64,000 nt of DNA from Candidatus Peribacteraceae bacterium (GTDB lineage: Bacteria > Patescibacteriota > Gracilibacteria > Peribacterales > Peribacteraceae), in NCBI GenBank assembly GCA_018061945.1, contig JAGOTD010000001.1, positions 151,050-215,049 of the forward strand. The letters run 5' to 3'. A model generated the notes under the pieces. The model was given only the letters and a program-made list of their open reading frames with translations. It did no database searches and was not told the origin of the DNA. A program made the position numbers and the translations under genes. Positions 3,470-63,173 of the stretch are shown here, in pieces (the stretch's first letter is position 1; every line of letters starts with the position of its first letter).

Positions 3470-3471
3470 TT

Positions 3472-32041: not shown

Positions 32042-32050
32042 GTGGGGATT

Positions 32051-33160: not shown

Positions 33161-33474
33161 AAAAATGCGTACGAAATAAAGAAAAGAAGCAAATGAATTA
33201 TACACATGGCAAAGGGTCTTGCAATGCAGGCGTGTAGCTTCATACACTTATTTGACGCACAAGACACTATAATCTTAGGAAGAATAATCCCTGCGGAAGA
33301 ACCGCGTGCATAGTATTTTTTTTCTACAATCGACAGAGCTGAAAATGCTTCTTTTACAAGCGAAGATATTGATGGGCAATATATTGCTTTTAAAGTAATT
33401 GATTCATAAAAAAACATTCGTATACTTGATCAGCTATTGATGCATTTCGTTCAATACTACCTTCATTTATTTTT

Positions 33475-33855: not shown

Positions 33856-33862
33856 TTCTCCT

Positions 33863-39663: not shown

Positions 39664-39700
39664 AGGTTTTTTGTATGAAATCAATCTGGATATTATACCA
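39664..39700 (-). promoter_or_regulatory. Extended -10 promoter and conserved leader
   Basis: The minus strand reads TGGTATAAT-ATCCAGATTG-ATTTCATACAAAAAACCT-ATG. Confidence 0.5.
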
Positions 39701-42629: not shown

Positions 42630-45263
42630 TTATTGCCCATATCCCTGCTCCAGCAATCGCCCAAGTAAAGTGGCTACTTCGGCACGGTTGATCGGACTAT
42701 CGGGACGGAAGGTGCCATCGGGATTGCCTTTCACAATGCCCATGCCCTTGAAAGTATTGATGAGCGGATCTTTGGTATCGGAGAAGAAACTGCCGACATT
42801 GGGGTTAGCAGTGATAGCGAGAGTGTCGGCCATCGCGTGAATAACTTGTAACCTTGTCATGGGGGTAAAGACATTCAGATCTTTCGTATACAGCGAGGGG
42901 CTTTTCGCCTCCAAAGCAGCAACGAACGAGGCTGCCCACGTGTTTTGCGCCGATGTATTGACCGGCGTTGATCCAGGCAAATTCATCAGTTGCGCGAGTA
43001 TTTTGGCAACTTCTGCGTGCTGCACATCGCGGCTTGGACGGTACAAACCGAGTGGCTTGCCGTTTTCATCGTTATAGCCAGAGACGATACCAAGATCCAC
43101 GAGCAGGTCGACTGCCGGAGCAAAGTAATCGGTAATGAAGACATCTTTGAAAACGATTTGTGTACTGTTGACGGTTTTGACGAGAAAGCCGGAGGAGGAA
43201 GTAAGTTCGATCGGTTTTTTCAGGGTGAGGGGTTGTTGCGAGGGAGAAGCAGAAGTTTGAGACGATTTCTGCGCTTGAGACGCGAGATAATCGGCAAGAG
43301 CTTTTTCACGGAGTGCTTTTTCGTTACTGGAGGAAGAAAGTGATGAGCGCGACCAGGAGGAGACAGAGCCAGTTGGCAGAGAGGATGTGGAGGAAGAAGC
43401 TTGGACGAAGGGAATGGAAGTGCTGGAAGAAGAAAGAGCAATGGAAGAAGCGATGCTGGAAGCAGACGAAGGAGATTGCATGACAGACGAAGCAGACGAC
43501 GATGAGACGGAAGATGCCGATGAACTCGATGAACTGGAGAGAGAACTGGCAACACTGGAGCTGGAAGAAGTAGACGGCGGAGCGCCGTGCAGGTCCGCTC
43601 CCAATGTCTTGCGCCAATGAACATATTCAAAACTCAAGCGATAGTTCTGCGCAAACTGCTTCCCTTGCTCGAGCCACGCGCCTTTGACTCCTCCGGCAAA
43701 AATCTGATCACCGCGGGTTAAGTACTTCGGATCACCGGTCATTTTGTAGAGCCAGCCGTACGGATAGACAATCAGCAAATTCAAATCCGGCGAACCAGCT
43801 TTGCATTTTTTGCCATCCATAAGAATCTGGTAGCAGAAGCTTTCGTTACCTGGCACCCAGAGATTATCCCACAAATAATCAGCTCCTTTTTGAATGGCAG
43901 GAAGAACGCGGGGGTCTTTCGTTTTTTCGTAATAATCAATAAGGCTATCGGCGGAAAGCGCAAACATAAAGGGAGCAATACGGGTGTATCGATTGGCGGT
44001 AAACCATTGTTCCATGTGACCGAGAACAATATCGGCGTACGCCTGGAGATACTGGTTCGGGCCATTGCCGGCTGTTTCGGTATCAATTTTTGCATCCAGC
44101 GCGTAAGCGGCTTCGCGACTATAACTGTCGCCGAGAACTGCCCACGGTACATTGCTAAATGCCGCATTTTTGGCCATGAGATCGATGGCCCGCTTCGATT
44201 CGGTATCACCACTTTTCTGCCAGTCGAGCAGCGCACCGCGCGGGAACACGCGATAGCCGGTAATGACACCGTTGTTGTCGAGTACATGTTTGCGAAACAC
44301 GGTTTCCACATACTGCGCACAGGTAGTGCCCCACACCGGATCATTCAGATAATCGGCCATTTGATAGTACGCGCGCGTGCCATCGTAAAACCACACGCTG
44401 CCGTCCCACATGCCCATGGAAATAATATCAGCCTGATTGCAAAATTTTGTTCCGTACTTCTTCATGTTCGATTCCCAAAGAGCAATCTGAGGAATGGCTG
44501 GTGGTGGTGATTGATACGCTTGAGGTGTCACAACTGCCGGCACAGGATCGACAATAAGCGGCATATTCACTGTATGTGATTTACTCCCAGCCATAACCGT
44601 CAGCTGAAAATTGTACGAACCGGGCTGCGCTGTCGGCGCAGCTGTCACTTTCATGGAGACCGTATTGTAGTAATTCTGGAAAAAAGAGACCGTAACGCCA
44701 GAGGGAACATTCTGGAACGAGAAGGTGGTAATCGGAAAAGATGATCCTCCGGTCCGACGCAGACTGGCTCTCAGATAGGAAGTATAGCCCTGCGTGACAT
44801 GAGAGATTGGCCCGACATCGACTAGGAAATCGAACGGCTGTGTTGTATCGACGAGCGTTTGGAATTTCAAGTCATCCTGTATTTTTGTTGTAGCACCGGC
44901 ACTGTCAACCGCCGTAATGGCATACGAATACCATGAGTCCATTTCGAGGCCGGTGAGCACGACACTGTGCGATGTCTGAAGTGTCGCATCGGACGCCGGG
45001 CCGAGTGCAAAACGCGTGGTTCGATCGTAGGCAACAGAACCGGTTGTCGGCACATTCGTCGTCCAATTGATGGTTGCAGAATTGAACGTGATATTCGTGA
45101 CGGTATTCGAGGTGATTTGTGGCGGAGAACCGGCATGTGTCTGCACGTCCTGCTTGGCATCGAACAGATACGGATAGACCATAAGCGCGGCAAACACGAG
45201 CATCAGCTGGCTTAGTACTATCGCTCCAAATTGGATATGACGCGGATGTGTTTGTTTCTGCAT
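42630..45263 (-). CDS. SLH-anchored surface protein, paralog 3 of 3
   Basis: 'MQKQTHPRHIQFGAIVLSQLMLVFAALMVY'. Same architecture, but the N-terminal and central regions are the most diverged of the three. Confidence 0.88.
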   Translation of the reverse strand: MQKQTHPRHIQFGAIVLSQLMLVFAALMVYPYLFDAKQDVQTHAGSPPQITSNTVTNITFNSATINWTTNVPTTGSVAYDRTTRFALGPASDATLQTSHSVVLTGLEMDSWYSYAITAVDSAGATTKIQDDLKFQTLVDTTQPFDFLVDVGPISHVTQGYTSYLRASLRRTGGSSFPITTFSFQNVPSGVTVSFFQNYYNTVSMKVTAAPTAQPGSYNFQLTVMAGSKSHTVNMPLIVDPVPAVVTPQAYQSPPPAIPQIALWESNMKKYGTKFCNQADIISMGMWDGSVWFYDGTRAYYQMADYLNDPVWGTTCAQYVETVFRKHVLDNNGVITGYRVFPRGALLDWQKSGDTESKRAIDLMAKNAAFSNVPWAVLGDSYSREAAYALDAKIDTETAGNGPNQYLQAYADIVLGHMEQWFTANRYTRIAPFMFALSADSLIDYYEKTKDPRVLPAIQKGADYLWDNLWVPGNESFCYQILMDGKKCKAGSPDLNLLIVYPYGWLYKMTGDPKYLTRGDQIFAGGVKGAWLEQGKQFAQNYRLSFEYVHWRKTLGADLHGAPPSTSSSSSVASSLSSSSSSSASSVSSSSASSVMQSPSSASSIASSIALSSSSTSIPFVQASSSTSSLPTGSVSSWSRSSLSSSSNEKALREKALADYLASQAQKSSQTSASPSQQPLTLKKPIELTSSSGFLVKTVNSTQIVFKDVFITDYFAPAVDLLVDLGIVSGYNDENGKPLGLYRPSRDVQHAEVAKILAQLMNLPGSTPVNTSAQNTWAASFVAALEAKSPSLYTKDLNVFTPMTRLQVIHAMADTLAITANPNVGSFFSDTKDPLINTFKGMGIVKGNPDGTFRPDSPINRAEVATLLGRLLEQGYGQ

Positions 45264-49527: not shown

Positions 49528-52500
49528 TTAGTTATTCGACTCACTCGACGAACTGGAAGACTCCGAACTGGAGGTGCTCGACTGCGAACTGGATTCACTC
49601 GATTCACTTGAGCTGCTACTCGATTCTTCACTGCTGGATGCACTACTGGACACAGAACTTTCACTACTCGACTCCGAGCTACTGCTGCTCGATTCTTCGC
49701 TTACAGAAGAGCTGATCGACTGCTCACTCGAACTGCTGGAAGAGACAGTAAGCGCATTCCCCTGTTCCTGTACCACTGCTTGGTACCCGACTGGGAGAAT
49801 GAGAATTTTCGGATCGCTTGTCCCGTTCCACGTAAAGGTAATGCGCAAATCCGGATGATCCCACTGGGCGTCGCTGTGGTAGCGACTACAGCTGAATGGC
49901 TGGCCATCAATATCCAAGATCGTCTGATTGCGCACACACGCATTCCAAATCGCGTTGGTCGAAACCGGCACGCCGAGGCTATCGACCGGGAAGGCGATGA
50001 AGCTACCTGTCATAGTGGTACCGCTACTTGTACGCGGAGCGTCTGTTGGGATAGCAATCCATGAGAATGTAATAGCTTGCGGCGCAGGAGAAGCAATACG
50101 AATGGTAAAGCCAGTTGCAGTCGCCTTCGAGACAGCGAAGAGAATTGGATAGTCTGGTGAAGCGGTGACAATCGGCCTCGCAATGAAACCACTGGCGAAC
50201 AGAACGGTAACTGATGTACCGGTTTGTGGAATGACTGCGTAGCCAACCTGTTTGCTGCTCAACTTGAACTCACCCTTCACTTCGACGTCGCCGAGGAAGA
50301 CAGCCAGACCGTTGATGGTGACACCGCCGATAACTTTGAGACTGTTGCGGTCGAGCAGCGAGCCAATATTCACCTGTGCTCCACTGAGTGTCAGTGAGCC
50401 GAGTGAGAAACCGCTACCGGTTGTAATAGGACCATCGATGCGCAAACCACCTTGAATGGTCGCTCCGCTGGATACCGACAGGCCGCCTGCTGCATGGAGT
50501 GGACCAAAAATGGTTGCCCCACTTTCTACACGCAGACTCGTGAATGTGACGCTAGTGGCTCGAAGCGCTCCGGAGAGGAACATATCGGCGGTTACAACTG
50601 TTGCACCGCTGTGAGTAGAGAGACCATAACGAGTTTGCAGCAGATTGGTGATGCCGTCGGTAGAGATAGACGCACCAGAGGACGACAGGCGCTGATCGAT
50701 AAGGTGATTCACCTGCGCCGTCAAATCGAGGGCTTGCAACTGATCGCGTACCGCGGTTGTGACGTTGTCATCCAGATTGAAATTGCGAATGGTATCGCCA
50801 ACCATTTGGTTCACCTGATCATCAATCTTCATAGCGGCAATGCTGTCTAAGACTTTCTGTTCAACGCCTTCGACGGTGAGCGACTGATTGCGTCGCGAGA
50901 TGAGGACATTGATCACTGCTTCCGGTCCACTTGAACCGTTGAATGCTTCGAGCGCCACACCGACAGTACTTTCGCCGGCGCTAGCCCGACGCGCAAAGCC
51001 CGGCTTGCTGGCCGATGTGAGTGAATCACCTGGGTGAATCGGACCATTTTCGAGCGTTACTTTTGCTGGCACCTGACCAATGAGACCGACCAGCTTATAG
51101 CCTGGAGGCATCACGCCATCGGCACCAGTAATATGATTTCCGATGTAGGCCGGATGCGTGGAAATAATACCCATCAGGTTGGTATCGGCATCGCGCATAC
51201 AGCGCTTGACGGTATTGTCATCCAGCGGATCGATACAGACCACTTCGCCTGGCATCAAATCCGCATCTTTGGACTTAAACCACTCCGCGTAGTCGGCACC
51301 GGAGGAGTTATACACGCCGTCGGCGTAGACCGCACCGCTGCCCGAAATACGGAAGACGGTATTATCCGTAGAGCTGACATCCGTAATAATCTTAAACATA
51401 TCTTGCGTGGCCGTCGTTTCGCGGCTGCGAATGCGAATGGCCTCGATATTGTCTGAATTTTTTGTTTCGATGTATAAAGCGGCAGTGGGCACAACGGATC
51501 CTCCAGATCCCAAGGAGACGAGTGCGCCCGAACGACTCGTAATAGAGAGAGCGTAGGCACCTGTAGATGTATTCATTATGGTCGATGCTCCGTGGGCTGT
51601 GACGCCATGTCCGAATACTCCTTCTCCTTGAACGTTCAGATCGCCAAAAATAGTTGCGTTGGTACGAACACTTAACGTTGCCGCTTCCAGAGCACCAACT
51701 TCCAGCTGCTGGATATAGGCACCACCAAGATCGAAGACGTTGAAATATGCCAACGCTGCCGCTGGGTAGGTGGAATAGAGATACCGGCCCTGCATCGCCA
51801 TAACAGCATATCCAGGTGCTGTAAGAGTACCTACCTGAAAGGGCAGACGCGGATTTGAGACGTCGTAGACGAGAATGTTCGAGGAAGATGTCGAAATGTA
51901 CAAATATCGCCCCTGCAGCACCATACGAGACATCGTAGCCGCAGGAACTATCCTGCCTACCGCCGCGCCGACAGATGAAGGATTGCTGATATCAAATATC
52001 TGTAATCCATTGCTGTTATAACCAGACACATAGGCGTAGCGACCTTGCACCTGCACTTCGGTGATGCGGTTTTGCGTATTAATATTGCTCGTCAGTACAA
52101 GATTACGCGGGTTACTCGTATCAAAAATGTACAAATTTCCTCCACTGGCTGCTACATATAAATAGCGACCCTGTACGGTGAGACGCGCCATGGCCGGTGT
52201 TGCAAACTGAGCCGTAGGATTCGCATAAACTGAGACAATCACGGGGGCTGATGGATCACTTATATCTGCCACATAAATGGAATAGGAGGTACCTGTTCCA
52301 ATAAACGCATAGCGACCTTGAACGGCTACCTGAGAGACTCCAGCGCCTGATATTGGAAGAGTAGACACAAATCTTGGCGCTGATGGATTACTAATATCAT
52401 AAATATTCATACCCAAGCTTGAAGCCAAGCCTACGTATGCATACCGACCCTGCACTACAATAGATTGCATGACCGCCGACGCAGCAGTCGACGTACCGAC

Positions 52501-55500
52501 TGTCGTGGGAGTTTCTGGATTCGTCAGATCTCTTACAACAAGTTGATTGGATGAATTAGATACATAGGCGTAGCGGCCTTGGACGGCCAAGGCCATCGTT
52601 GCTGTTGTTGCGTACGAACCGGAACCGACTGGACGAGTGATAGATTTTCCAGGAAGAAACAGCTGCGGAACTATAGCTCCAGTCGAGCCACGCTGAAGGA
52701 AGCCTGATCCAAATTGCACAGTGCCAGTGGCAAGATTTGTACTGATCAATGGAGTCTTTTGGCTGCCCGTACCGGAGATGTACAGACCTTGGCCAGACAT
52801 GGTGCCGCGCACAGAGAGTTGCGTACCCGATAGCGCCGCTGCATAGAAATTCGCATTGGTTTGCAACGCATTTCCCGTTGGCCGACGCAGCGAGACATCG
52901 TAGGTCGTACCCGTACCAAACATTATATGAGCCGTGTTTGTGGTACCACGAGCAGCAATGCGCAGGGCACCCGAGTACGTAGAAATAATAGTGAATGCAT
53001 TCGAACCTGTACTTGTATTAATGAATGACGACTCTCCTTGTACATAGATTCCGCGACCAAATGAACCTCCTCCTGCTACGTTCAATTCACCGAAGATTGC
53101 AGCATTCCCTCTTACCGACAACTGACTTGTCTCGATGCCGCCCGCTTCCAGCTGCTGGATGTATGTACCGCCAATATCAAAGGTATTAATTGCGTTTTTC
53201 GAACCGTTGAGCGCATACAAATATCTTCCTTGCACCGATACATCATTAATCGTTCCGACGTACGGAATGGTGCCGACAGCCTTAGCAACACGAGGATTAC
53301 TAACATCAACAACGGTTATCACTCCGCTTAGATCCGTTACGTACAAGAAGCGTCCTTGGAGAGATAATCTACGTCGTCCGTTATTTCCCGACCCAACAGA
53401 CAGCGTCCTTACAAGCGTTGGATTACTTGGCGTGCTTACGTCAATAATTTGTACTGTGGAACTAATTCCGCTTGCCAAATACACGTAACGTCCTTGAGCC
53501 AGCAAAGCTGACGTGTTAGCAGAAATACTCGTAGAGACCGTCCCTACCTTTACCATGTTGGATGGATTGGAAATATCGAAAACGCTCATGGCCTGCGAAC
53601 AACATGTACCGTTGGTGACATACAAGTATTTACCTTGCGCAGCCATATACGATGTTTGTGACGAGTTTGCAAATGACGCCGTTCCAACTGTAACAATATT
53701 GGAAGGATTACTAATATCGTAGGCAGTAAGCGTACTAGACGATGGCGCTACTCCAAACATATAGCGCCCCTGTATTTCGTCTGCTATGGCCAAAGGGTTA
53801 CTGATTAATGTAGGAGAAGTCGGATTCGATACATCGAAAACATATGTTCGACTATTGCCAAAATTGGACAAATACACGTAGTGTCCCGAAACAAGAAGGT
53901 TCGCAATAGCTTGGTTTACAGTACCGAAACTCGTCGAGCTTAACTGTATGGGAGACTGCGGATTCGACACATCGTAAATATCGAGTTTTGGTGCTGCGCC
54001 AGCAGCCTGATTATAGTTTGCCACGTAGGCCAATCTCCCCTGCACCTTGATAACGTATGGCGTTATTGAAGTTGCGCCAGATCCAACGTACGTCGATGGG
54101 AAGTTAATGCCCGTGTAAAGATTGGGCGTCATGGCACCTGTCGATGTACCAGCAAGAGAAATTGCACCCGAGCCAATGAGAATAGTATTCGTTGGCGTAT
54201 TTGTACGTAACAGCGGACGAGAGCCGGTGCCTGTTATCGTAAGAGATGTGCCAGAGAAGCTATTGGCGTAGAAGTTTGCATTCGTCATCAGCACCAATCC
54301 AGTTGAACGGCGTAGCGACACATCGTACGTGGTGCCGGTACCAAACATAATGTGCGCAGCCGAACTTGTGCCACGGGCGGCGATGCGCAAAGCACCAGAG
54401 TAAGTAGAAATGAGCGTGAGAGTTGTGCCACCCGTTGATGTACTTGAAATTGCAGAGAGTCCGTTAGCATTAAATCCTTGGCCAAAACTTGCAGCTCCGC
54501 GCACATCCAAGTTGCCGAAGATACGCGCGTTGTTCGTCACAGCAAGATCTGTCGTCTCCAAGCTGCCTACTTCTAGTTGCTGGATGTACGCACCACCAAG
54601 ATCGAAGACATTAATCGATGAATTGTTATAATCGATTGTATACGCATACCGGCCTTGTACGGAAATTCCTTGCTGCAAGCTTCCAACGCTTGTCGTTCCT
54701 AGTAAAGTAGGCACACGGGGATTGCTTATGTCATACGTCAGAAGACCATTGGATCCATTGGTAGCATAGAGATAGCGTCCACTGACATCGAAGGAAGTTA
54801 TATTATTAGAAATTGTCGATACTAGTACTGCACTCAATGGATTACTAATATCGTAGATCTTCATACCAAGACCTCCTGATGAACCCATATATAAATACTT
54901 ACCAATTACTTTCAATGTCGTATAACGAAAGCCGGAGCTAATTGTTGCTGCAGTGAATGGATTGGCAGGATTCGATATATCGACAACATACGTTGCCGCT
55001 GTACCAAACGAGTTTGATACATACGCGTACCGTCCCGATACCGTTACACCGCCACCGTAGTTACCGTAAGTTATACTGCCAACAACGTACGGATTGGATG
55101 GATTCGAAATATCTGTGACTCTGAATATACCTCCACTAAACGTCTGCGAATACAAATAGCGTCCTTGAATAGCGATACTCGACTGTGTGCCACCTGCTCC
55201 AACCGCAGACATAAAAATTGGTGTAGCAGGATTACTAATATCGTAAATACGAATTGTCGAAGCACCAGTATAGTTCTGCACGTACGCATAACGACCTTGC
55301 ACCAAAATGCCGTACGGATTAGAAATACCCGACGTCGTTGTCGACAGAAGCTGTGGCTGCTTATTAGAAATATCAAAAATCTGGAAACTGTTCCCCGAGT
55401 AGTTCACCACATACGCGAAACGACCTTGTACCGTTATGGCACTTGGGTTTGCCTGTGTTGCGCCAGAACCCACGTAGGTTGTTGGTACTCTGCCTGCAAC

Positions 55501-58500
55501 GTACAGCTGCGGAGCCATGGCACCCGTACCGTTTTTCATCGCACCTGTACCCATCATTATGGTGCCGTAGCGGTTATCAGTCTTTATGAGCGGCTGTGAA
55601 CCTGTCCCTGTAACAACCAAGCTCTTGCCCGACATAGTACCGCGAATCATGGCATTGCCGTTGATAATCAAGTTGGCACCAGACAGAGTTCCCTTTGTCG
55701 TAATGTTGCCTTTGGCCACAATCGAACCAGAAGTGGTGATGTCGCCAGAGATGTTGAGGGACGAGCCGGAGATAGTAGCGCGGACAGTGAGGGCGCCTGT
55801 CATGGTGCCGCCAGCAGTTCTTAGGTAACGACTGTCACCGATAGTGACGACGTTGCCAGAGCCAAAGGTGCCCGAGCCTCCTGTTAAATCTGTACCACAG
55901 GTAACGTTGCCGCTTCCATCTGTTTTGAGGGTACAGTTACCAAAGTTCTGGAACATCAATGCACCTCTGATGATCATGCCACCCGAACCAGAGATGAGGC
56001 TGGAGATCTTAAGTTGTGAGCCAGAGATGGTGCCAACGACGTCGAGCTGTGTACCAGCGGACACAGTTGTTTTACCAATCGAGAGGACTCCATTTTGAAT
56101 GTAGCTGTTGCCGTTCATGATGGTGAGTAGGCCACCAGAGAGGGTGCCGCGTGTTGAGAGATTGTTTTGGAAGAGACCTGTGCCCTTGGTAATGATGGAA
56201 CCAGAAGTGGTGATGTTGTTAGAAACATTCAAGCTGTAACCCGACATGGTGCCACGGATCAAAAGCTTGGTGCCAGACAGAGAAGCAGCATAGAAATTGG
56301 CATTGGTCTGAAGTGCATTGCCAGTTGGACGACGCAATGAGACATCGTACGTGGTACCCGTACCGAACATAATGTGTGCAGTGGAAGAGCTTCCGCGAGC
56401 GTTGATACGCAATGCACCGGTGTTTGCGGATACTATGGTAAACGCATTGGAGCCCGTGCTGGTATTCAAAATAGTTGACTGGCCCTGCGCAAAGAAACCG
56501 CGACCGAAATATGATCCTCCCATTACAACCAACTCTCCACCCACAGTGGCATTGCCACGTACTGAGAGAGTCCCCGCTTCCAGCCCACCAGTTTCCATTT
56601 GCTGGATATACGCACCACCGATATCGTACACATTCAAAACGTTTTTGCTTCCATTGATGACATACAGATAGCGGCCTTGAACGGCAATATCGTTAATAGT
56701 ACCGGCTGAGGCGAACGTGTTAACCACTTTTGCAACTCGAGGGTTACTCACATCAATCGCGGTAATAACGTTATTTGAGTCGGACACATACAGATATCTG
56801 CCCTGAATCGCCATTCTGCGTCTGCCGTTATTGGCTGCCAATGTCAAAGTCTTGACTGCAAGCGGTCTTGCCGGATTACTAATATCGACAATCTGTACCT
56901 GATTTGACGCACCGCCACCCAAATAGGCATACCGACCCTGTACAAGAACTGATGTGACATAGGTGATAGTAGTTGATGTACCCATACCGCCTACTTTCGT
57001 TAAATTCGTCGGGTTCGATATATCGTATATCGAAAAAGCAGGCGAGCAGCATCCGCCGTTTGCAACGTACAAGTATTTACCTTGAATAGCAGCGTAGCCA
57101 AGGGAGCTCGATCCTGTTTGCGTAGCAGATCCTACCTGGATAGGACTGATCGGATTACTGATGTCATAGGAATAGACACGGCCGTTCGTCGGGTCGGAAC
57201 CGTACAAATAGCGACCCTGTATTTCTGTCGCAACTCCGGAATTAAAACTGATGCCTACCGGCGTAACAGGATTGGATACGTCATAGACTATAACGTTGCT
57301 GTTGGCCGCGTACTCAATATAAACATACCGTCCTCCAACGACAATGTTTGTCAGCGGGTGATTTGGCGTATGAACCGCAGTGCTACTAAGCTTCACAGGA
57401 GCTTGCGGTATGGAAAGATCGAAAATATCAAGCGTCGAACTGGCAGATGAATTGTTAATTACATAGGCAAATTTGCCCTGCACCCTCATGGTAAACGGCG
57501 TAACCGTAGTCGCACCGGAGCCGATATACGAAGATGGGAATGCCGTACCGACATACATGTTTGGCGTCATAGCGCCTGTGGAAGTTCCGGCATTGGAAAG
57601 ATACCCCGAACCGAATGACACAGTGCCTGTTGTCAAATTTGTCTGGATGAGCGGAGAATGTTGTGCACCCGTACCAGAGATGTACAACCCCTGACCCGAC
57701 ATGGTGCCGCGCACATTCAGAAGTGGTGTCGATGTTTCAGTATGCGTGTTGCCGTTTTGTATACTGACTGCACCAGTAAGCGTGCCACCAGACAGTCTGA
57801 GGTAGCGTGCATCGGCAGCAGTCATGGTGAAGGCAGTTCCACAGCTTGTCACTCCGTTACCATCGGTGATGATCATGGCACAGCTCTTAAGGCTGGAGAC
57901 AGTGAGAGTCTGACCCGAGAGGGTTCCACGGAAGGTGGCGTTACCATTGATGAGAATACCACCAGAGCCAGAGATGAGGCTGGAGATCTTAAGTTGTGAA
58001 CCAGAGATGGTGCCAACGACATCGAGCTGTGTACCAGCGGACACAGTTGTTTTACCAATCGAGAGGACTCCATTTTGAATGTAGCTGTTGCCGTTCATGA
58101 TGGTGAGCAGGCCACCAGAGAGGGTGCCGCGTGTTGAGAGATTGTTTTGGAAGAGACCTGTGCCCTTGGTAATGATGGAACCAGAAGTGGTGATGTTGTT
58201 AGAAACATTCAAGCTGTAACCCGACATTGTGCCACGGATCAAAAGCTTGGTGCCAGACAGAGAAGCAGCGTAGAAATTGGCATTGGTCTGAAGTGCATTG
58301 CCAGTTGGACGACGCAATGAGACATCGTACGTGGTACCCGTACCGAACATAATGTGTGCAGCCGAACTTGTGCCACGAGCAGCTATACGTAGTGCGCCTG
58401 AATAGGTAGAAATAAGTGTCAGAGCAGTTGCACCTGTAGATGTAGACGCGATGGCCGATGGACCGTTAGCATTAAATCCATTACCAAAGCTTGCACCACC

Positions 58501-61500
58501 AGCAACGTCCAAGTTTCCGTAGACAGCTGCATTGCCACGCACAGCTAATGTGCCTGCTTCAATGCCACCAACTTCCAACTGCTGGATATACGCACCGCCA
58601 AGGTCGTACGTATTAATGCTGCTAGATGTCTGATTCACGACGTATGCATAACGACCCTGGACAAACACAGAATTTGCCAGTGAGCCAGTTGGCATCGTTC
58701 CAACAAGTGTAGGTACAGACGGATTGGAAACATCAACAACAATGACCGTATTATTAGCCCCTCCCGCGATATACGCATAACGACCCTGGACATACACTGA
58801 CAGTGTTGGATTTCCAGAAGCAATCGTGAGCGAACTTCGTAATGTGAGTGCTGTTGGACTGGAAAGATCCGTAATATTGAAACTATTTGTATACGCCGTA
58901 TACGCATAGCGACCTTGAACGAATAATGCTCCACCAACACGAGTTGCAGACTGCCCAACATACGCTGGTGCGGCTGGGTTGCTTACATCCACAGAGAAAA
59001 GGTAGTTCGTGCTTGCATTAGATCCAGTAACGTAAACATAGTTACCGAGAACAGATATGTTCGTGACAGCCGAAAGATTCGCATTCGTTGTGGTCCCAAC
59101 CATAATTGGATTGGCTGGATTACTAATATCAAAGACACCAACTCCACCTGACGATGCAGACCCTCCGTACAAATATCGTCCTTGTATTGCCAACGCTCCA
59201 CCAGCAACTGTGCTAGCTAAGTACTTCACAAGGCGTGGCGACGCAGGATTCGAAATATCCACAATCCACAATCCATGACCAGCACCACCCTTCGTAACAA
59301 AGTATGCATACCGACCCTGAACCACGACGTGCGTTGCAATATAGTTTGTACCTATGGAATACGAACCAACTAATTGAGGCGTTGCTGTACTTACATCGAA
59401 TATCTCCAATTTATTCGTTGAGAAATTACCACCTACCACGTAAGCATAACGACCCTGCACATACACATCGAAAGGAGTCGCATTTGTTGCTCCGCTACCA
59501 ACCCACGTTGTCGGAACACGACCTGCAACGTACAGCTGCGGAGCCATGGCACCAGTACCGTTTTTCATGGCGCCAGTTCCCATCATTATGGTGCCGTAGC
59601 GGTTGTCAGTTTTTATGAGCGGCTGGGAACCTGTCCCTGTAACAACCAAGCTCTTGCCCGACATAGTACCGCGAATCATGGCATTGCCGTTGATAATCAA
59701 GTTGGCGCCAGACAGAGTTCCCTTCGTCGTGATATTTCCTTTAGTCACAATCGAACCAGAAGTGGTGATGTTGTTAGAGATGTTGAGCGATGAGCCGGAG
59801 ATAGCGGCGCGGACGGTGAGAGCACCTGTGACAGTACCACCCGAGAGACGGAGGTAGCGTGCGTCAGCAGCAGTCATGGTGAAGGCAGTTCCACAGCTTG
59901 TCACTCCGTTACCATCGGTGATGATCATGGCACAGCTCTTAAGGCTGGAGACAGTGAGAGTCTGACCCGAGAGGGTTCCACGGAAGGTGGAGTTACCATT
60001 GATGAGAATGCCACCAGAGCCAGAGATGAGGCCGGAGATCTTGAGGGCAGAGCCAGAGATGGTGCCGACGACATCGAGCTTAGTTCCAGCGGAGACGGTT
60101 GTTTTGCCGATAGAGAGAGAACCATTTTGAATGTAGCTGTTGCCGTTCATAATGGTGAGCAGACCACCAGAGAGGGTGCCGCGAGTGGAGAGGTTGTTTT
60201 GGAAGAGACCTGTGCCCTTGGCAATAATGGAACCAGAAGTGGTGATGTTGTTGGAGATGTTGAGCGACGAACCAGAGATGGCGGCGCGGACGGTGAGGGC
60301 GCCTGTCATGGTGCCGCCAGCAGTTCTTAGGTAACGACTGTCACCGATAGTGATGACGTTGCCAGAGCCAAAGGTGCCCGAGCCTCCTCCTGTTAAGTCT
60401 GTGCCACAGGTAACGTTGCCGTTTCCATCTGTCTTAAGGGTACAGTTACCAAAGTTCTGGAACATCAATGCACCTCTTATGATCATGCCACCCGAGCCAG
60501 AGATGAGACTAGAGATTTTAAGTTGTGAGCCAGAGATAGTACCGACGACGTCGAGTTTGGTGCCAGCTGCGACAGAGGTTTTACCGATGGCGATGTTTCC
60601 CAGAAGGTAGGAATCTCCATTCATAATTCTAAGCGCTGCGCCAGAGAGTGATGTACGAGCATTGATCGATCCATTGGTGGTGATGGATCCAGAGTTCGAG
60701 ATATTGCCAGAAATATTGGCGTTCCCATTAAGGATAAGGCCAGCGCCAGAGAAGGTAGATTTTGTGGTAATGGAGTTCTTGGCGATAATGGCGCCAGAAG
60801 TGGTGATGTTGTTAGAGATATTGAGCGACGAACCAGAGATGGCGGCGCGGACGGTGAGGGCGCCTGTCATGGTACCGCCAGCAGTTCTGACGTAACGACT
60901 GTCACCGATAGTAACAACTTGTCCAGAACCGAAACCAGCGGGAGTTGTAGACCAAGTCAGGTTTCCAGCTCCATCAGTCTTGAGGTAACCACTTGGTGTT
61001 TGCGAACCGGCAAACGTATATGTTTGACCGTTAATTGTGAGAGTAGAATTGAATCGAACGTCTTTCGTAAAGACAGTAGTGCCCGAGAAACCAGCAGTCC
61101 CCATAATGCGCAGCGCTGCACCCGAGAGTGTGCCCTTTACGGTTGTATCATTTTTCAGAAGTGATGGACCAACAACTGTAAGCGTGCCAGACGACGACAA
61201 TCCTTTTTCTGCATGAATGTACGCACCCGATGCCGTCTGAAGAATATTGAGTCCGAGATAGCCAGATTTAAGGTTGATGACCAGACCACCCGTCATCGTA
61301 TCGCCGGTCTGCTTCACATAATGCAAATCTGCATATAATTGCGACAGACCCGTCACAGCAACGGATGACCACATAAGTCCGCCAGTTGGCGTAACAGTCA
61401 GCACCTGTCCATTGGAACCAATACCGAAATCTGTAAACGTTCCAGCAGCATTTCCTAGAAGCAACGATCCAGAACCGATGCTACTAAGACCCGTTCCGCC

Positions 61501-62343
61501 TCTGCTAACTGCCAGAATGCCAGTCACTTCACTACTGAGATTGATCGGCTGGCCAGCAAAATCGCGCTGGCTTCCACCAGATGTAGAACCAGATGTCTGA
61601 TTACCACCGCCACCTCCGCCTCCATAATGACGCTCGACGGGAGATCCATCCGCGGGCTGCACATACGGTATGCGGCCGCTGCTTATCGGATGCAGCGAAG
61701 AATATGCCTCATCAATATCGATCCACACCAATTTTCCTTTCTGATAGCTGAGCACTTGTCCGTCGGTTGCCGGACCCATCGCCATAAGAAGGACGCGCAG
61801 CGAACGAGCCAAAAGGCCGGACGTATCGACTGTCGCTAGGGCGGAAGGAATAGGAGGTTGCTGTCCTTCTTGAACCGGACCATACGCTGGAGCTGCGGCG
61901 TGATTATTCGCCAAGCGTGCCAAGCGACGCAGATACGCTCTTTCGTTTGTAGCTGAGTAATAGGTTTCGTGCGTCACTGCTTCTTTGCCATTGGATGTGA
62001 AAATATTTTCTTGCGTAAACAGTGGAGCGGAAACAGTTGAGCCGTTGCCTGCTGGCACGACTGAAGTCACCGTTCGTGTCATATGGGCGACACCGGTAAA
62101 CGGACGGATCGCAGTATTGATAATCAATCCACTATCTGGCTTCTCGCCGATGCCAAGTGAGAGACGATTGATGATCGCACCCTTTGGAATAATTTCGAGA
62201 GCCGGCACATTCAAGAATAAGAGACCACCCTCCCCGGCCAAGTTGGACGCCTGCGTGATGGCAATCGCCAGGAGCGACAGCAGCAGTATGCCTGCAGCTA
62301 GCAGGAGCGAGGAAAGCCGGTGAGGACGGTTTATATATCTCAC
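49528..62343 (-). CDS. 4271-aa giant surface protein: N-terminal TM anchor, tail-fibre-like repeats, five 7-bladed LVIVD-type beta-propellers, Peptidase_G2/IMC-like domain, possible H-type-lectin-like domain, acidic poly-Ser tail
   Basis: - Uninterrupted 12.8-kb ORF with a GTG start overlapping the upstream stop (GTGA at 62340-62343).
- TM 'LSSLLLAAGILLLSLLAIAI'.
- Tail-fibre motifs 'VSRGGTGLSS', 'KQTGDTMTGGLVI' and repeated 'RTAGGTMTGALTVRA'.
- 35 blades of the form 'VQGRYAYV....L.I.D(V/I)SNP..P'.
- Five 'GGAYIQQLE' junctions.
- 'SGADYAEWF...PGEVVCID...NLMGIISTHPAYIGN'.
- Tail '...SSSSSESSESSSQSSTSSSESSSSSSESNN'. Confidence 0.9.
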   Translation of the reverse strand: MRYINRPHRLSSLLLAAGILLLSLLAIAITQASNLAGEGGLLFLNVPALEIIPKGAIINRLSLGIGEKPDSGLIINTAIRPFTGVAHMTRTVTSVVPAGNGSTVSAPLFTQENIFTSNGKEAVTHETYYSATNERAYLRRLARLANNHAAAPAYGPVQEGQQPPIPSALATVDTSGLLARSLRVLLMAMGPATDGQVLSYQKGKLVWIDIDEAYSSLHPISSGRIPYVQPADGSPVERHYGGGGGGGNQTSGSTSGGSQRDFAGQPINLSSEVTGILAVSRGGTGLSSIGSGSLLLGNAAGTFTDFGIGSNGQVLTVTPTGGLMWSSVAVTGLSQLYADLHYVKQTGDTMTGGLVINLKSGYLGLNILQTASGAYIHAEKGLSSSGTLTVVGPSLLKNDTTVKGTLSGAALRIMGTAGFSGTTVFTKDVRFNSTLTINGQTYTFAGSQTPSGYLKTDGAGNLTWSTTPAGFGSGQVVTIGDSRYVRTAGGTMTGALTVRAAISGSSLNISNNITTSGAIIAKNSITTKSTFSGAGLILNGNANISGNISNSGSITTNGSINARTSLSGAALRIMNGDSYLLGNIAIGKTSVAAGTKLDVVGTISGSQLKISSLISGSGGMIIRGALMFQNFGNCTLKTDGNGNVTCGTDLTGGGSGTFGSGNVITIGDSRYLRTAGGTMTGALTVRAAISGSSLNISNNITTSGSIIAKGTGLFQNNLSTRGTLSGGLLTIMNGNSYIQNGSLSIGKTTVSAGTKLDVVGTISGSALKISGLISGSGGILINGNSTFRGTLSGQTLTVSSLKSCAMIITDGNGVTSCGTAFTMTAADARYLRLSGGTVTGALTVRAAISGSSLNISNNITTSGSIVTKGNITTKGTLSGANLIINGNAMIRGTMSGKSLVVTGTGSQPLIKTDNRYGTIMMGTGAMKNGTGAMAPQLYVAGRVPTTWVGSGATNATPFDVYVQGRYAYVVGGNFSTNKLEIFDVSTATPQLVGSYSIGTNYIATHVVVQGRYAYFVTKGGAGHGLWIVDISNPASPRLVKYLASTVAGGALAIQGRYLYGGSASSGGVGVFDISNPANPIMVGTTTNANLSAVTNISVLGNYVYVTGSNASTNYLFSVDVSNPAAPAYVGQSATRVGGALFVQGRYAYTAYTNSFNITDLSSPTALTLRSSLTIASGNPTLSVYVQGRYAYIAGGANNTVIVVDVSNPSVPTLVGTMPTGSLANSVFVQGRYAYVVNQTSSSINTYDLGGAYIQQLEVGGIEAGTLAVRGNAAVYGNLDVAGGASFGNGFNANGPSAIASTSTGATALTLISTYSGALRIAARGTSSAAHIMFGTGTTYDVSLRRPTGNALQTNANFYAASLSGTKLLIRGTMSGYSLNVSNNITTSGSIITKGTGLFQNNLSTRGTLSGGLLTIMNGNSYIQNGVLSIGKTTVSAGTQLDVVGTISGSQLKISSLISGSGGILINGNATFRGTLSGQTLTVSSLKSCAMIITDGNGVTSCGTAFTMTAADARYLRLSGGTLTGAVSIQNGNTHTETSTPLLNVRGTMSGQGLYISGTGAQHSPLIQTNLTTGTVSFGSGYLSNAGTSTGAMTPNMYVGTAFPSSYIGSGATTVTPFTMRVQGKFAYVINNSSASSTLDIFDLSIPQAPVKLSSTAVHTPNHPLTNIVVGGRYVYIEYAANSNVIVYDVSNPVTPVGISFNSGVATEIQGRYLYGSDPTNGRVYSYDISNPISPIQVGSATQTGSSSLGYAAIQGKYLYVANGGCCSPAFSIYDISNPTNLTKVGGMGTSTTITYVTSVLVQGRYAYLGGGASNQVQIVDISNPARPLAVKTLTLAANNGRRRMAIQGRYLYVSDSNNVITAIDVSNPRVAKVVNTFASAGTINDIAVQGRYLYVINGSKNVLNVYDIGGAYIQQMETGGLEAGTLSVRGNATVGGELVVMGGSYFGRGFFAQGQSTILNTSTGSNAFTIVSANTGALRINARGSSSTAHIMFGTGTTYDVSLRRPTGNALQTNANFYAASLSGTKLLIRGTMSGYSLNVSNNITTSGSIITKGTGLFQNNLSTRGTLSGGLLTIMNGNSYIQNGVLSIGKTTVSAGTQLDVVGTISGSQLKISSLISGSGGMIIRGALMFQNFGNCTLKTDGSGNVTCGTDLTGGSGTFGSGNVVTIGDSRYLRTAGGTMTGALTVRATISGSSLNISGDITTSGSIVAKGNITTKGTLSGANLIINGNAMIRGTMSGKSLVVTGTGSQPLIKTDNRYGTIMMGTGAMKNGTGAMAPQLYVAGRVPTTYVGSGATQANPSAITVQGRFAYVVNYSGNSFQIFDISNKQPQLLSTTTSGISNPYGILVQGRYAYVQNYTGASTIRIYDISNPATPIFMSAVGAGGTQSSIAIQGRYLYSQTFSGGIFRVTDISNPSNPYVVGSITYGNYGGGVTVSGRYAYVSNSFGTAATYVVDISNPANPFTAATISSGFRYTTLKVIGKYLYMGSSGGLGMKIYDISNPLSAVLVSTISNNITSFDVSGRYLYATNGSNGLLTYDISNPRVPTLLGTTSVGSLQQGISVQGRYAYTIDYNNSSINVFDLGGAYIQQLEVGSLETTDLAVTNNARIFGNLDVRGAASFGQGFNANGLSAISSTSTGGTTLTLISTYSGALRIAARGTSSAAHIMFGTGTTYDVSLRRSTGLVLMTNANFYANSFSGTSLTITGTGSRPLLRTNTPTNTILIGSGAISLAGTSTGAMTPNLYTGINFPSTYVGSGATSITPYVIKVQGRLAYVANYNQAAGAAPKLDIYDVSNPQSPIQLSSTSFGTVNQAIANLLVSGHYVYLSNFGNSRTYVFDVSNPTSPTLISNPLAIADEIQGRYMFGVAPSSSTLTAYDISNPSNIVTVGTASFANSSQTSYMAAQGKYLYVTNGTCCSQAMSVFDISNPSNMVKVGTVSTSISANTSALLAQGRYVYLASGISSTVQIIDVSTPSNPTLVRTLSVGSGNNGRRRLSLQGRFLYVTDLSGVITVVDVSNPRVAKAVGTIPYVGTINDVSVQGRYLYALNGSKNAINTFDIGGTYIQQLEAGGIETSQLSVRGNAAIFGELNVAGGGSFGRGIYVQGESSFINTSTGSNAFTIISTYSGALRIAARGTTNTAHIMFGTGTTYDVSLRRPTGNALQTNANFYAAALSGTQLSVRGTMSGQGLYISGTGSQKTPLISTNLATGTVQFGSGFLQRGSTGAIVPQLFLPGKSITRPVGSGSYATTATMALAVQGRYAYVSNSSNQLVVRDLTNPETPTTVGTSTAASAVMQSIVVQGRYAYVGLASSLGMNIYDISNPSAPRFVSTLPISGAGVSQVAVQGRYAFIGTGTSYSIYVADISDPSAPVIVSVYANPTAQFATPAMARLTVQGRYLYVAASGGNLYIFDTSNPRNLVLTSNINTQNRITEVQVQGRYAYVSGYNSNGLQIFDISNPSSVGAAVGRIVPAATMSRMVLQGRYLYISTSSSNILVYDVSNPRLPFQVGTLTAPGYAVMAMQGRYLYSTYPAAALAYFNVFDLGGAYIQQLEVGALEAATLSVRTNATIFGDLNVQGEGVFGHGVTAHGASTIMNTSTGAYALSITSRSGALVSLGSGGSVVPTAALYIETKNSDNIEAIRIRSRETTATQDMFKIITDVSSTDNTVFRISGSGAVYADGVYNSSGADYAEWFKSKDADLMPGEVVCIDPLDDNTVKRCMRDADTNLMGIISTHPAYIGNHITGADGVMPPGYKLVGLIGQVPAKVTLENGPIHPGDSLTSASKPGFARRASAGESTVGVALEAFNGSSGPEAVINVLISRRNQSLTVEGVEQKVLDSIAAMKIDDQVNQMVGDTIRNFNLDDNVTTAVRDQLQALDLTAQVNHLIDQRLSSSGASISTDGITNLLQTRYGLSTHSGATVVTADMFLSGALRATSVTFTSLRVESGATIFGPLHAAGGLSVSSGATIQGGLRIDGPITTGSGFSLGSLTLSGAQVNIGSLLDRNSLKVIGGVTINGLAVFLGDVEVKGEFKLSSKQVGYAVIPQTGTSVTVLFASGFIARPIVTASPDYPILFAVSKATATGFTIRIASPAPQAITFSWIAIPTDAPRTSSGTTMTGSFIAFPVDSLGVPVSTNAIWNACVRNQTILDIDGQPFSCSRYHSDAQWDHPDLRITFTWNGTSDPKILILPVGYQAVVQEQGNALTVSSSSSSEQSISSSVSEESSSSSSESSSESSVSSSASSSEESSSSSSESSESSSQSSTSSSESSSSSSESNN

Positions 62344-63173
62344 TGGGCGGAAGGAGAAGATGTATCGTTTACCTGCGTACTCAACACCGATCGACCTGTA
62401 TCGTTCACCTGTGTCCGAATATCATGCGCAAAAATCGCCAACTGGCTTGAGGCCAGTAGCCAACCGATTGCAACGAGCGACAGGGCGATGCCGAGCTTAT
62501 GGAGCACCGAGGTAACTGCATGGAACAAATGCGAAGCCTGTTTCTCTGAAGGGGAAACAGATGTCTGCACTTTTTTCAGGGCAGCGCAGACATCTAATTC
62601 CGGAACTGATGTAATGGGCAACATGCTGTCAGCAAGTACCGATCGTCTATCGGCTACCTGCATGAATGGCTGCACATTGTCATTCGATTGAGGTGCTGAT
62701 TGCCCTTGCACCAATGCGCGATCGAGTTCTTGTACCGACATCCAGATACCCTGCTCGCGCGCCAGAATTTGTAGCAGCTGCTTTTTTTCGAGGTACGGAT
62801 ACTGGCGATGATAGTGCGTAACCACTTGAACCAAGTGATGCGACACCGACACTTTTTTTATCTGCAGCGAACGATGAGATCTCTCTTCCAAGCTAAATGG
62901 ATTACTTGGATCAAAACGCACTAACCAACGCTGCAACGTCGTGCGTGCAATCGCGAAGTAATGACACGTTTTGCTTATAGATCGACCATGATCGACGAAG
63001 TACACCAGCCACTCCAAGCGTTGCTTTGCCTCCGGAGACAGACGCAGCTCTTCCTGCCTCTTTTGAAGGCTTTGTAACTGCTCGCGCTGGAGAGAAGAAA
63101 ATCGCATTGAGTGTATATATGTGTTGGTATATGCGTGTCGCGCTTCATCGCAACTATCAAATTTTCTAGTCAT
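62340..63173 (-). CDS. Transposase-derived (IS481/IS3-type N-terminal) HTH protein lacking a catalytic domain, with a C-terminal TM helix; translationally coupled to the giant gene
   Basis: 'LSPEAKQRLEWLVYFVDHGRSISKTCHYFAIARTTLQRWLVRFDPSNPFSLEERSHRS...YPYLEKKQLLQILAREQGIWMSVQELDRAL' matches the double-HTH N-terminal region of rve-type transposases. No DDE/rve region follows. Instead there is a linker and the TM helix 'IALSLVAIGWLLASSQLAIFA'. The start is uncertain; an alternative ATG at 63107 gives 'MRFSSLQ..'. Confidence 0.65.
   Translation of the reverse strand: MTRKFDSCDEARHAYTNTYIHSMRFSSLQREQLQSLQKRQEELRLSPEAKQRLEWLVYFVDHGRSISKTCHYFAIARTTLQRWLVRFDPSNPFSLEERSHRSLQIKKVSVSHHLVQVVTHYHRQYPYLEKKQLLQILAREQGIWMSVQELDRALVQGQSAPQSNDNVQPFMQVADRRSVLADSMLPITSVPELDVCAALKKVQTSVSPSEKQASHLFHAVTSVLHKLGIALSLVAIGWLLASSQLAIFAHDIRTQVNDTGRSVLSTQVNDTSSPSAQ

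Follow-up and report, generated by a model that had tools for sequence, protein, structure and literature searches.

A giant protein of a Peribacteraceae bacterium with five serial LVIVD beta-propellers and a predicted phage-type chaperone end

Xiang et al. are said to have reported in 2009 that the C-terminal domain of gp12, the pre-neck appendage of phage phi29, drives trimer assembly of this receptor-binding fibre and is then auto-cleaved. The body of gp12 is a single right-handed beta-helix with depolymerase activity. The mature virion form, gp12*, ends at residue 691 (PMC6542822). Cells make phage-like fibres too: the superfamily of mosaic adhesive trimers (MAT) in Bdellovibrio bacteriovorus comprises phage-like trimeric adhesins that are displayed at the surface and carry variable tips (Caulton et al. 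2024, PMC10769870). MAT fibres are chromosomally encoded in an organism that itself lives on other bacteria, start with a signal peptide and a conserved beta-rich N-terminal domain of ~130 residues, and exist as numerous paralogues that combine a conserved part with a variable binding part; 13 of the 21 end in an autoproteolytic intramolecular chaperone (IMC) (PMC10769870). In the Candidate Phyla Radiation (CPR), PilX2 of the episymbiont Nanosynbacter lyticus TM7x is a proposed host-binding adhesin with a 7-bladed propeller (PMC12206443). Here we describe a gene for a 4271-residue protein (the giant protein) on the minus strand of a 64,000-nucleotide stretch of DNA, hereafter the window, from a Candidatus Peribacteraceae bacterium (assembly GCA_018061945.1, contig JAGOTD010000001.1, positions 151,050 to 215,049), and compare it with these systems.

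The giant protein carries five LVIVD propellers in series on a repetitive stalk and ends in a module predicted to be a chaperone of the gp12 type. We consider it probable, with substantial room for doubt, that it is a giant Sec-exported surface fibre of a CPR bacterium, made of parts of phage receptor-binding proteins, which recognises other cells and whose propeller cassettes are shuffled; the bacterium itself is likely host-dependent. An earlier description of this DNA, made without database searches (the sequence-only reading), found no characterised system to match the architecture. We see it instead as a variant of the IMC-capped phage-type fibres, with the MAT proteins of Bdellovibrio as the closest cellular analogue, and every part of it belongs to a known kind, be it the fibres of phage type with an IMC, the LVIVD repeats or the phage-like adhesin fibres of bacteria.

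Each of these comparisons also has its limits. With gp12, the giant protein shares the fold of the C-terminal domain and the motif x↓D-[YF]-A-E-[WY]-F (the arrow marks the cut), but it is cellular, putatively exported and 5 times longer, its body consists of repeat stalk and propellers, and its predicted post-cleavage part has extra helices, a lectin-like domain and a Ser-rich tail. MAT proteins measure ~1,000 residues and have a single C-terminal tip, whereas the giant protein is four times larger with five serial internal candidate binding domains, and the chaperone is S74 (SDxxxK) in MAT but G2-type here. The giant protein departs from the MAT pattern of a single variable C-terminal tip or a terminal S74 chaperone, having a G2-type end and five internal propellers. 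Stalks homologous to its own weakly match the Bdellovibrio Bd2133 fibre (8ond_A, profile, E 2.8e-4). The MAT paper and its supplements (PMC10769870) make no mention of propellers, LVIVD or CPR. PilY1 and TM7x PilX2 likewise hold a 7-bladed propeller away from the cell on a filament, but theirs is a single propeller of RCC1 or PilY1-type rather than LVIVD repeats, mounted on a pilus and not on a covalent fibre.

Anatomy of the giant protein

A regular-expression census counts 35 blade motifs, arranged as five sets of seven that each precede one junction, and all 35 blades align on VQGRY.Y ... D(I/V)SNP..P. The Pfam LVIVD profile (PF08309) matches strongly (414.2 bits vs a cutoff of 20.2, E 3e-127, 15 reported stretches). 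For the AlphaFold2 model of module 3 (aa 2195-2718), the input alignment comprised all five modules plus 45 homologues; in this model, residues 95-390 have pLDDT >90 and form 28 strands, equal to seven four-stranded blades. This is the one module modelled, the other four being called propellers from their seven aligned blades each. Foldseek with the model returns generic 7-bladed propellers (E ~1e-13, 10-15% identity), matches that support the predicted 7-blade fold and carry no functional clue, and a sequence search of a propeller against the PDB gave nothing useful. Profile, alignment and model thus agree with what the sequence-only reading had made of these repeats, five modules of seven blades each, folded as beta-propellers in series. 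P5 narrowly passes TIGR04312, choice-of-anchor B (102.7 bits vs a cutoff of 100, over aa 3258-3425), which essentially re-describes the LVIVD propeller.

The module 3 model also suggests how the propellers are built into the chain. Strand 1 is the conserved 'YVGSGAT' ahead of blade 1, and the last blade is short of its fourth strand. The 'YVGSGAT' strand would complete that blade by velcro closure, so that the chain would enter and leave the propeller at the same blade, which would permit serial insertion of propellers into a continuing stalk; the chain would accordingly re-enter the stalk at its exit point, the 'GGAYIQQLE' junction.

The conserved elements of the blades are the QG turn and the SNP..P loop, whereas the loops after RYAYV and after VG(S/T) have high entropy and variable length (blade entropy peaks in the BC and DA loops). 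In standard propeller topology alternate loops lie on opposite faces, which would place the two variable loops of each blade on one face. Between orthologous propellers, substitutions amount to 29% in the variable loops, 12% in the opposite-face loops and 21% in the strands (Fisher p = 0.002 for 29% vs 12%). This loop variability fits a variable binding face, though it is no proof of selection. Since the five propellers are divergent (pairwise identity 35-52%) with the variable loops on one face, they would probably bind different ligands. In P2 and P4, the variable loop of blade 4 holds a vicinal Cys-Cys (Table 1).

Each propeller is closed by a junction 'GG[AT]YIQQ[LM]E', and the five junctions lie within ~20 nt of the positions estimated earlier. 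The segments that follow are 63-80% identical among junctions 1-4 and ~40% for junction 5, identities of 88-98% being reached only by some stalk stretches. The earlier contrast between differing propellers and nearly identical connecting segments is therefore overstated on its second side.

Ahead of P1, the stalk (aa 261-951) is composed of repeated units, 'RGGTGLSS' (aa 281), 'GDTMTGGL' (aa 347), 'DSRY.RTAGGTMTGALTVRA' and 'IGKT.V.AGTKLDVVGTISGS', together with Cys-x12-Cys loops. All the stalk motifs named by the sequence-only reading were found again, except that its four or more DSRY copies resolve into three exact occurrences of 'DSRY[LV]RTAGGTMTGALTVRA' (aa 481, 668, 2170) and two variants 'DARYLRLSGGT[VL]TGA' (aa 827, 1511). 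Its view of them as hallmarks of phage tail fibres does not extend beyond the motifs: PHROG assigns none of the four segments searched (N-terminus, stalk, linker, C-terminus) to a family, and nothing in 50,697 phage genomes matches the stalk by tblastn, so that detectable homology of the stalk to known phage tail fibres was rejected. The affinity to phage fibres that it proposed survives by another route, through the G2-type chaperone and the presence of the cassette in phage tail modules.

The C-terminal module, which the earlier description lacked, is predicted to be a phi29-gp12-type (Peptidase_G2) chaperone/autoprotease. The G2-type domain opens with 'DYAEWF' and includes a conserved pair, Cys3703/Cys3715. 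The search recovered 101 homologues of the C-terminal region, many of them, at 40-50% identity, with a precomputed PF11962 (Peptidase_G2) assignment. Across an alignment of 58 sequences (the window segment and 57 homologues) A-D-Y-A-E-x-F is >=90% conserved, within a core of 'GADYAExF ... GExVC.D ... KRC ... MGIVST.P ... LIGQVPAKV ... PGD.LT ... GVALE ... VLI.RRN'. The AlphaFold2 model of the C-terminus reaches pLDDT 85-97 over this domain, and its best PDB matches in Foldseek are pre-mature phi29 gp12 (3suc, E 5e-6) and the C-terminal autochaperone fragment (3gqh, E 1e-4); in BFVD its best matches (E 1e-8 to 1e-13) include chlorovirus proteins as well as entries annotated 'preneck appendage protein' and 'Peptidase G2 IMC autoproteolytic cleavage domain-containing protein', the latter two kinds down to E 7e-13. 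For Peptidase_G2, named beforehand as a domain worth searching, the Pfam score is sub-threshold (see below), while the fold of the gp12 C-terminal autochaperone is matched. hhalign sets A3683↓D3684-Y-A-E3687 of the giant protein on S691↓D692-F-A-E695 of gp12; given this alignment and the end of mature gp12* at residue 691, we predict that self-cleavage, coupled to trimerisation, falls at A3683↓D3684.

By sequence, phage matches of the C-terminus are weak and confined to the G2 core, a search against the PDB returned nothing useful, and Pfam finds no Peptidase_S74 in the giant protein. Chain cU of 8h2i ('P22', 1343 aa), a virus fibre protein in what we take to be the PBCV-1 capsid, shares the pre-cleavage motif '...FRV.GDG..Y..G....GADYAE' along with 'NN.IGVVS..P'. 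Among the BFVD entries, chlorovirus proteins (e.g. A7IW45 B170R) share the fold of the C-terminal module; these proteins differ in being virion components without propellers, and the sequence match is weak (E 2.5e-3).

The rest of the C-terminal part begins with long helices that span ~85 residues (model 283-367) and, according to the model, probably form a coiled coil; homologues are annotated bactofilin-like over this stretch (aa ~3821-4018). The first of the two beta domains that follow (~aa 4025-4125) resembles Helix pomatia/aspersa agglutinin and discoidin II in Foldseek (E 4e-3 to 5e-2); this H-type-lectin-like domain matches Helix pomatia agglutinin (4q56/2ce6/2ccv) at E ~4e-3 and a TM-score of ~0.54 on the target, and Pfam gives no H_lectin (PF09458) at E <= 1. 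The second includes the pair Cys4136/Cys4152.

At the other end, the sole strongly hydrophobic segment of the 4271 residues is aa 12-30 (Kyte-Doolittle 2.55; runner-up 1.55), which fits the N-terminal transmembrane (TM) helix noted earlier, though as judged from sequence it could be either a membrane anchor or a cleavable Sec signal peptide. A type IV pilin-like N-terminus was rejected, the segment being without a G↓FTLIE-type motif. The following region (aa 32-260) has no match in Pfam or PHROG; it shares with P0226, a paralogue described below, the weak motif 'GQVL..G..W ... RHYGGGGGG'. All 16 Cys fall into 8 local pairs, which include the stalk's Cys-x12-Cys loops, a pair within the G2 domain and another within the last beta domain, and this local pairing suggests disulfides in an exported protein. 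As the sequence-only reading had it, the giant protein is without SLH domain, unlike its neighbours: the Pfam scan finds no SLH in it, and five downstream neighbours have one.

Table 1 Features of the giant gene and its surroundings, in window coordinates
Feature	Residues	Positions	Strand	Remarks
Whole open reading frame (ORF)	1-4271	49528..62343	-	GTG start, zero internal stops; stop codon at 49528-49530
Positively charged N-terminus, hydrophobic segment (aa 12-30), then 'TQA↓S'	1-31	62251..62343	-	
Membrane-proximal region	32-260	61564..62250	-	Gly-rich linker at its end
Stalk of repeated units	261-951	59491..61563	-	Motifs; weak Bd2133 profile match of homologous stalks
Propeller P1, 7 LVIVD blades	952-1248	58600..59490	-	
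Junction 1 ('GGAYIQQLE...') and inter-propeller stalk	1249-1610	57514..58599	-	Junction at aa 1249, plus-strand 58599
Propeller P2, 7 blades	1611-1908	56620..57513	-	Vicinal Cys1765-Cys1766 in variable loop (~57046-57051)
Junction 2 and inter-propeller stalk	1909-2294	55462..56619	-	Junction at aa 1909, plus-strand 56619
Propeller P3, 7 blades	2295-2582	54598..55461	-	Modelled with AlphaFold2
Junction 3 and short stalk	2583-2756	54076..54597	-	Junction at aa 2583, plus-strand 54597
Propeller P4, 7 blades	2757-3057	53173..54075	-	Vicinal Cys2914-Cys2915 in variable loop (~53599-53604)
Junction 4 and short stalk	3058-3243	52615..53172	-	Junction at aa 3058, plus-strand 53172
Propeller P5, 7 blades	3244-3539	51727..52614	-	
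Junction 5 and pre-cleavage stalk domain ('...VFRISGSGAVYADGVYNSSGA')	3540-3683	51295..51726	-	Junction at aa 3540, plus-strand 51726
Predicted post-cleavage part	3684-4271	49531..51294	-	
Peptidase_G2-type intramolecular chaperone/autoprotease domain (predicted)	3684 to ~3820	50884..51294	-	
Long helices, then beta-helix-like stretch	~3821-4018	50290..50883	-	Low to medium model confidence
Two confidently modelled beta domains	~4019-4199	49747..50289	-	Boundaries of first approximate
Ser/Glu-rich low-complexity tail	4200-4271	49531..49746	-	
Upstream 277-aa ORF	1-277	62340..63173	-	Weak helix-turn-helix (HTH) and C-terminal TM helix
Promoter-like site		63200-63172		10/12 + TG
Surface-protein island		25258-49282	-	
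Surface-protein island		31334-34570		
Three tandem ~860-aa SLH paralogues		37111-39684, 39842-42451, 42630-45263		
772-aa fusion protein		12876-15194	+	

Relatives of the protein and of its cassette

A single orthologue was found, a protein of 3054 residues (L001/P0222) that is 86% identical at the C-terminus and 67% at the N-terminus. Its locus, which has the flanking genes of the window, lies in a second metagenome-assembled genome (MAG), and the protein was seen on 4 contigs; scanning metagenomes with the N-terminal domain specific to the two orthologues hit the L001 contig only. The orthologue shares the charged and hydrophobic N-terminus and the Ser/Glu-rich tail (paralogues have tails of other compositions), and it is the only protein in which aa 32-260 are conserved (67%). 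It has three propellers in an order that differs from that of the giant protein: its first corresponds to window P4 (80%), its third to window P3 (78%), and its second matches none of the window propellers. These matches show that cassette number and order change between close relatives.

The same C-terminal cap closes long frames in many Peribacteria MAGs (2,000 to >4,000 aa; for example 3906, 3915, >4035 and >4127 aa), with two such giants each on contigs JAHFJM010000003.1 and CAZKJL010000002.1. Their bodies consist of many copies of the stalk repeat seen here at aa ~330-480, and most have few or zero LVIVD blades. The shared cap and stalk repeat define a Peribacteria family of giant capped fibres, of which the giant protein is a propeller-loaded member. 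Two paralogues, P0226 (3482 aa) and L015 413-12158, start with a cytoplasmic-looking segment of ~130 residues ('...SREEKG.IR.F.....GYSRAQ..R.I...') followed by a TM helix, a sequence arrangement that implies a putative N-in/C-out membrane anchor ahead of the fibre.

The cassette of propeller and junction is widespread. A homology search with one complete module recovered 989 proteins, and among the 120 matches listed at least 35 have about seven blades followed directly by 'GG.Y[IVL]QQLE'. These proteins are mostly 600-1000 aa long, several with a precomputed Peptidase_S74 chaperone domain; their named sources are mostly CPR (Saccharibacteria, Pacebacteria, Uhrbacteria), and one of them bears the annotation 'tail fiber protein'. 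The homologue listings for the C-terminus and the module hold no protein above ~1,141 aa and are thus silent on giants. With the junction segment as query, 1.84 billion representatives searched exhaustively gave only 66 proteins, about ten of them with several modules. P0223 has six modules and an S74 end (>=3278 aa), and its neighbour P0279 (5437 aa) has six junctions and is S74-capped; the two genes are adjacent on L054 (2-9838 and 9982-19838; JGI 3300034227), and a related partial protein is annotated as a Candidatus Babeliales 'tail fiber domain-containing protein'. P0225 has four modules and P0227 three, as does P0224, annotated 'tail fiber domain-containing protein' from Candidatus Babeliales. 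P0271 (3442 aa) has a signal peptide and at least four propeller-junction modules with fn3-like segments between them; it lies at L053 1-13329 (ENA ERZ25039454 contig_15828, 778,864 bp), directly after a 2056-aa LVIVD protein. These multi-propeller relatives (P0223, P0279, P0225, P0227, P0271 and Babeliales MFI5332522.1) share serial propeller + junction cassettes and a C-terminal chaperone with the giant protein; they differ in mostly having an S74 rather than a G2 end, in other stalk repeats and in other lineages, and they are uncharacterised. By sequence, the serial-propeller fibre thus appears rare yet not unique to the window, and five modules are not the record.

The cassette also occurs on 22 IMG/VR contigs (L030-L051), in proteins mostly without signal peptide (L043, whose protein starts with a hydrophobic segment, is an exception). 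Its gene adjoins tape-measure and tail-fibre-like genes on L031, terminase and portal on L034, and a virion structural protein and phage replication genes on L030. Some of these proteins have two propellers, as on L034 with 16 blades and L040 with 15, and those of L031 and L041 start with 'KRGT.AN.P.L..GE.AFTTD', presumably a phage-fibre N-terminal motif. The phage-contig genes lie at L031 7623-9884, L034 6708-13106, L040 6669-10562 and L030 7302-9407. These proteins share the propeller with the giant protein, and in some cases the junction, but they are shorter, with one or two propellers and some phage-fibre N-termini, and they are uncharacterised, their role in receptor binding being inferred from gene position. 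The propeller of L030 shows 38-42% identity to every one of the five window propellers, a similarity on a par with that among these five and with that of the best cellular propellers from outside the orthologue (41-46%). In the literature we found no paper on LVIVD-propeller fibres or on IMC-capped fibres in CPR.

The window itself encodes LigA, PurB, FtsH, a PilT ATPase and tRNA-Leu, no phage genes were found anywhere in its 64 kb, and nearly all homologues of the C-terminal region stem from MAGs of Candidatus Peregrinibacteria/Peribacteria; together, these observations identify it as a CPR chromosome fragment. A prophage origin was rejected on the lack of phage genes in the window. The giant gene sits inside a block of surface-protein genes at 25-62 kb. 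The rest of this island includes a 1950-aa SLH/beta-helix/fn3 protein, two small ConA-like lectin (Laminin_G_3) ORFs, the three tandem SLH paralogues and a 1304-aa Big_7/Big_3_5/SLH/SH3 protein. Elsewhere in the window, a 772-aa protein fuses a RimK-related alpha-L-glutamate ligase-like domain (TIGR02291) to a QEGLA-motif protein (TIGR02421). Peregrinibacteria are enriched in huge uncharacterised proteins (PMC11573180).

Directly upstream of the giant gene, the stop of a 277-aa ORF overlaps the GTG start codon (GTGA; the ORF ends four bases inside), and the two genes are probably co-transcribed. The best promoter-like site of the region lies directly upstream of this ORF, and the region-wide promoter/terminator scan is at chance level. 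The ORF, which also precedes the orthologue in L001, has weak HTH matches (HTH_28 / HTH_Tnp_IS630), and may from its sequence be a membrane-tethered regulator co-transcribed with the fibre. Homology of this ORF to the cytoplasmic-looking N-terminal segments of P0226 and L015 was rejected, BLAST and Pfam showing no similarity.

Proposed mechanism and alternative explanations

The features described above can be joined into one mechanism. The N-terminal hydrophobic segment would direct the chain to export and may hold it in the membrane as an anchor. After export, the Peptidase_G2-type chaperone would join three chains and nucleate folding of the stalk from C- to N-terminus, as in phi29 gp12, and would then cut itself off at the predicted site. 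The ~1,900 stalk residues would yield a long fibre, ~100 nm by rough scaling from phage fibres. Each chain would loop out of the stalk five times to form the 7-bladed LVIVD propellers supported by sequence and monomer model, and the trimer would show five tiers of three propellers. Their targets may be surfaces of host or prey cells, or polymers; the multivalent-adhesin function put forward by the sequence-only reading is plausible. Finally, 'propeller + junction' cassettes could be gained, lost and reordered via recombination between similar stalk segments.

Several points weigh against this account of a cell-recognising fibre. The source organism is uncultured. The analysis shows the domain anatomy, the assigned folds, the distribution of the family, the reshuffling of cassettes and their co-occurrence with phage genes, whereas export and anchoring, trimerisation, cleavage, fibre length, binding and the kind of target are inferred. 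At the C-terminus, Pfam Peptidase_G2 scores 19.6 bits with the isolated last 732 aa (E 6.4e-4), below the cutoff of 25, and the hhalign probability against gp12 is 29%. The predicted post-cleavage part measures 588 aa vs 163 aa in gp12, and in Peribacteria homologues its conservation extends over 84-98% of the length; for a discarded chaperone, this conservation and the lectin-like domain are odd and unexplained. The stalk is without detectable sequence homology to phage proteins, and stalk and junction have pLDDT 50-85 in the monomer model (stalk 50-70). No cell-wall retention motif (SLH, LPXTG) was found in the giant protein, which leaves its retention unexplained should the N-terminal segment be a signal peptide that is cleaved. 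The loop variability could reflect structural constraint on the conserved loops, not selection on a binding face. We know of no LVIVD propeller with a demonstrated ligand, and the literature found on LVIVD is purely computational. Finally, the exact module number rests on one assembly.

Among the alternatives, the one that fares best is a structural or nutrient-capturing part of the envelope, either a spacer or scaffold of the S-layer region or a binder of dissolved or particulate polymers, such as polysaccharides, that the cell itself takes up; the propellers would then serve as generic modules for binding carbohydrate or protein. Neighbouring genes for SLH, fn3, Big, beta-helix and ConA-like lectin proteins form a block typical of envelope and polymer handling, the giant protein has an H-type-lectin-like domain at the C-terminus, and large exported proteins and surface polymers are known to take up a heavy investment of Peribacteria genomes (PMC4736985). 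However, the same cassette occurs in phage tail modules, where the task is host-cell recognition, and the protein lacks an SLH domain for integration into an S-layer. The shifts in cassette order between close orthologues and the variability on one face are moreover expected of receptor recognition and not of a scaffold. We therefore regard an envelope role as unlikely, albeit one to be taken seriously.

A different doubt concerns the architecture's details rather than its function, namely that the number or order of the five modules results from mis-joining of repeats during assembly, the architecture itself being real. Repeats in the ORF reach 124 nt when exact and 414 nt when near-identical (97.6%, aa ~1328-1465 and 1988-2125), an exact look-up of the 4271-aa protein found no record in any other assembly, and the orthologue has three modules. 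Yet the frame is open across 12.8 kb, the five propellers are so divergent from each other that none is a duplicated read-through, and mismatches interrupt the repeats every few tens of bases, which makes them, as far as the sequence tells, diverged and not collapsed copies. With the 3054-aa orthologue present on 4 contigs and other proteins known with 4-6 modules, a miscounted or misordered series seems improbable to us.

The propellers might instead be enzymes (lactonase, phosphotriesterase, selenium-binding-protein/methanethiol-oxidase-like or polysaccharide-degrading), with the fibre as a multi-enzyme display scaffold. Weak Pfam/NCBIfam co-matches to SBP56, MtoX, 6-phosphogluconolactonase and cytochrome D1, a phosphotriesterase propeller (5hrm) as second-best Foldseek match, and the vicinal Cys-Cys of P2 and P4 would point this way. 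The scores, however, are far below cutoffs (MtoX 44 bits vs 650, lactonase 23 vs 370) and overlap the LVIVD signal, and the Foldseek matches, at 10-15% identity, are such as any 7-blade fold would give. In the 35-blade alignment, the conserved residues are those of the structural repeat motif, with no recurrent His/Asp/Cys constellation. An enzymatic function was accordingly rejected as reflecting only sub-threshold overlaps with repeat-containing enzyme families, and we consider it very improbable. Least credible of all, and hardly worth retaining, is the view that the gene belongs to a phage or tailocin, for instance as a prophage tail fibre, and does not encode a cellular surface protein, since a gp12-like G2-type chaperone, a cassette common to phage contigs and relatives annotated 'tail fiber protein' have to be set against 64 kb without phage genes, flanks of housekeeping and surface-protein genes, a locus syntenic in a second MAG, many paralogous giants per Peribacteria genome, and an N-terminal export/anchor segment that the true-fibre-like proteins of viral contigs, L043 excepted, do not have.

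Implications for host-associated bacteria

Little is known of how ultrasmall CPR/Patescibacteria locate their hosts and stay attached to them, and the only experimentally supported players in CPR host attachment are so far type IV pili, including the propeller-bearing TM7x minor pilin (PMC12206443). The present analysis gives one class of Peregrinibacteria giants a testable anatomy, comprising a putative chaperone-assembled fibre, a predicted cleavage site and five separable candidate binding domains, and its conserved C-terminal cap can be used to find the whole giant family. It also reveals the 'LVIVD propeller + GGAYIQQLE junction' as a mobile cassette common to CPR, Babeliales-like bacteria and phages, whose distribution offers the LVIVD Pfam family a first functional context, cell-surface recognition, after none since 2004.

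More tentatively, the giant protein and its relatives may be 'cellular tail fibres', that is, host-range determinants of obligately host-associated bacteria (CPR/Peregrinibacteria, Babeliales) with phage-type self-cleaving chaperones and interchangeable LVIVD cassettes, shuffled among paralogues and orthologues and drawn from a pool shared with phages, a proposal that we regard as possible but doubtful. If it were true, one fibre would present up to 15 binding sites with five specificities, and propeller cassettes could predict the hosts of an uncultured CPR bacterium. If confirmed, single propellers could be expressed and used as probes for the hosts of uncultured CPR bacteria.

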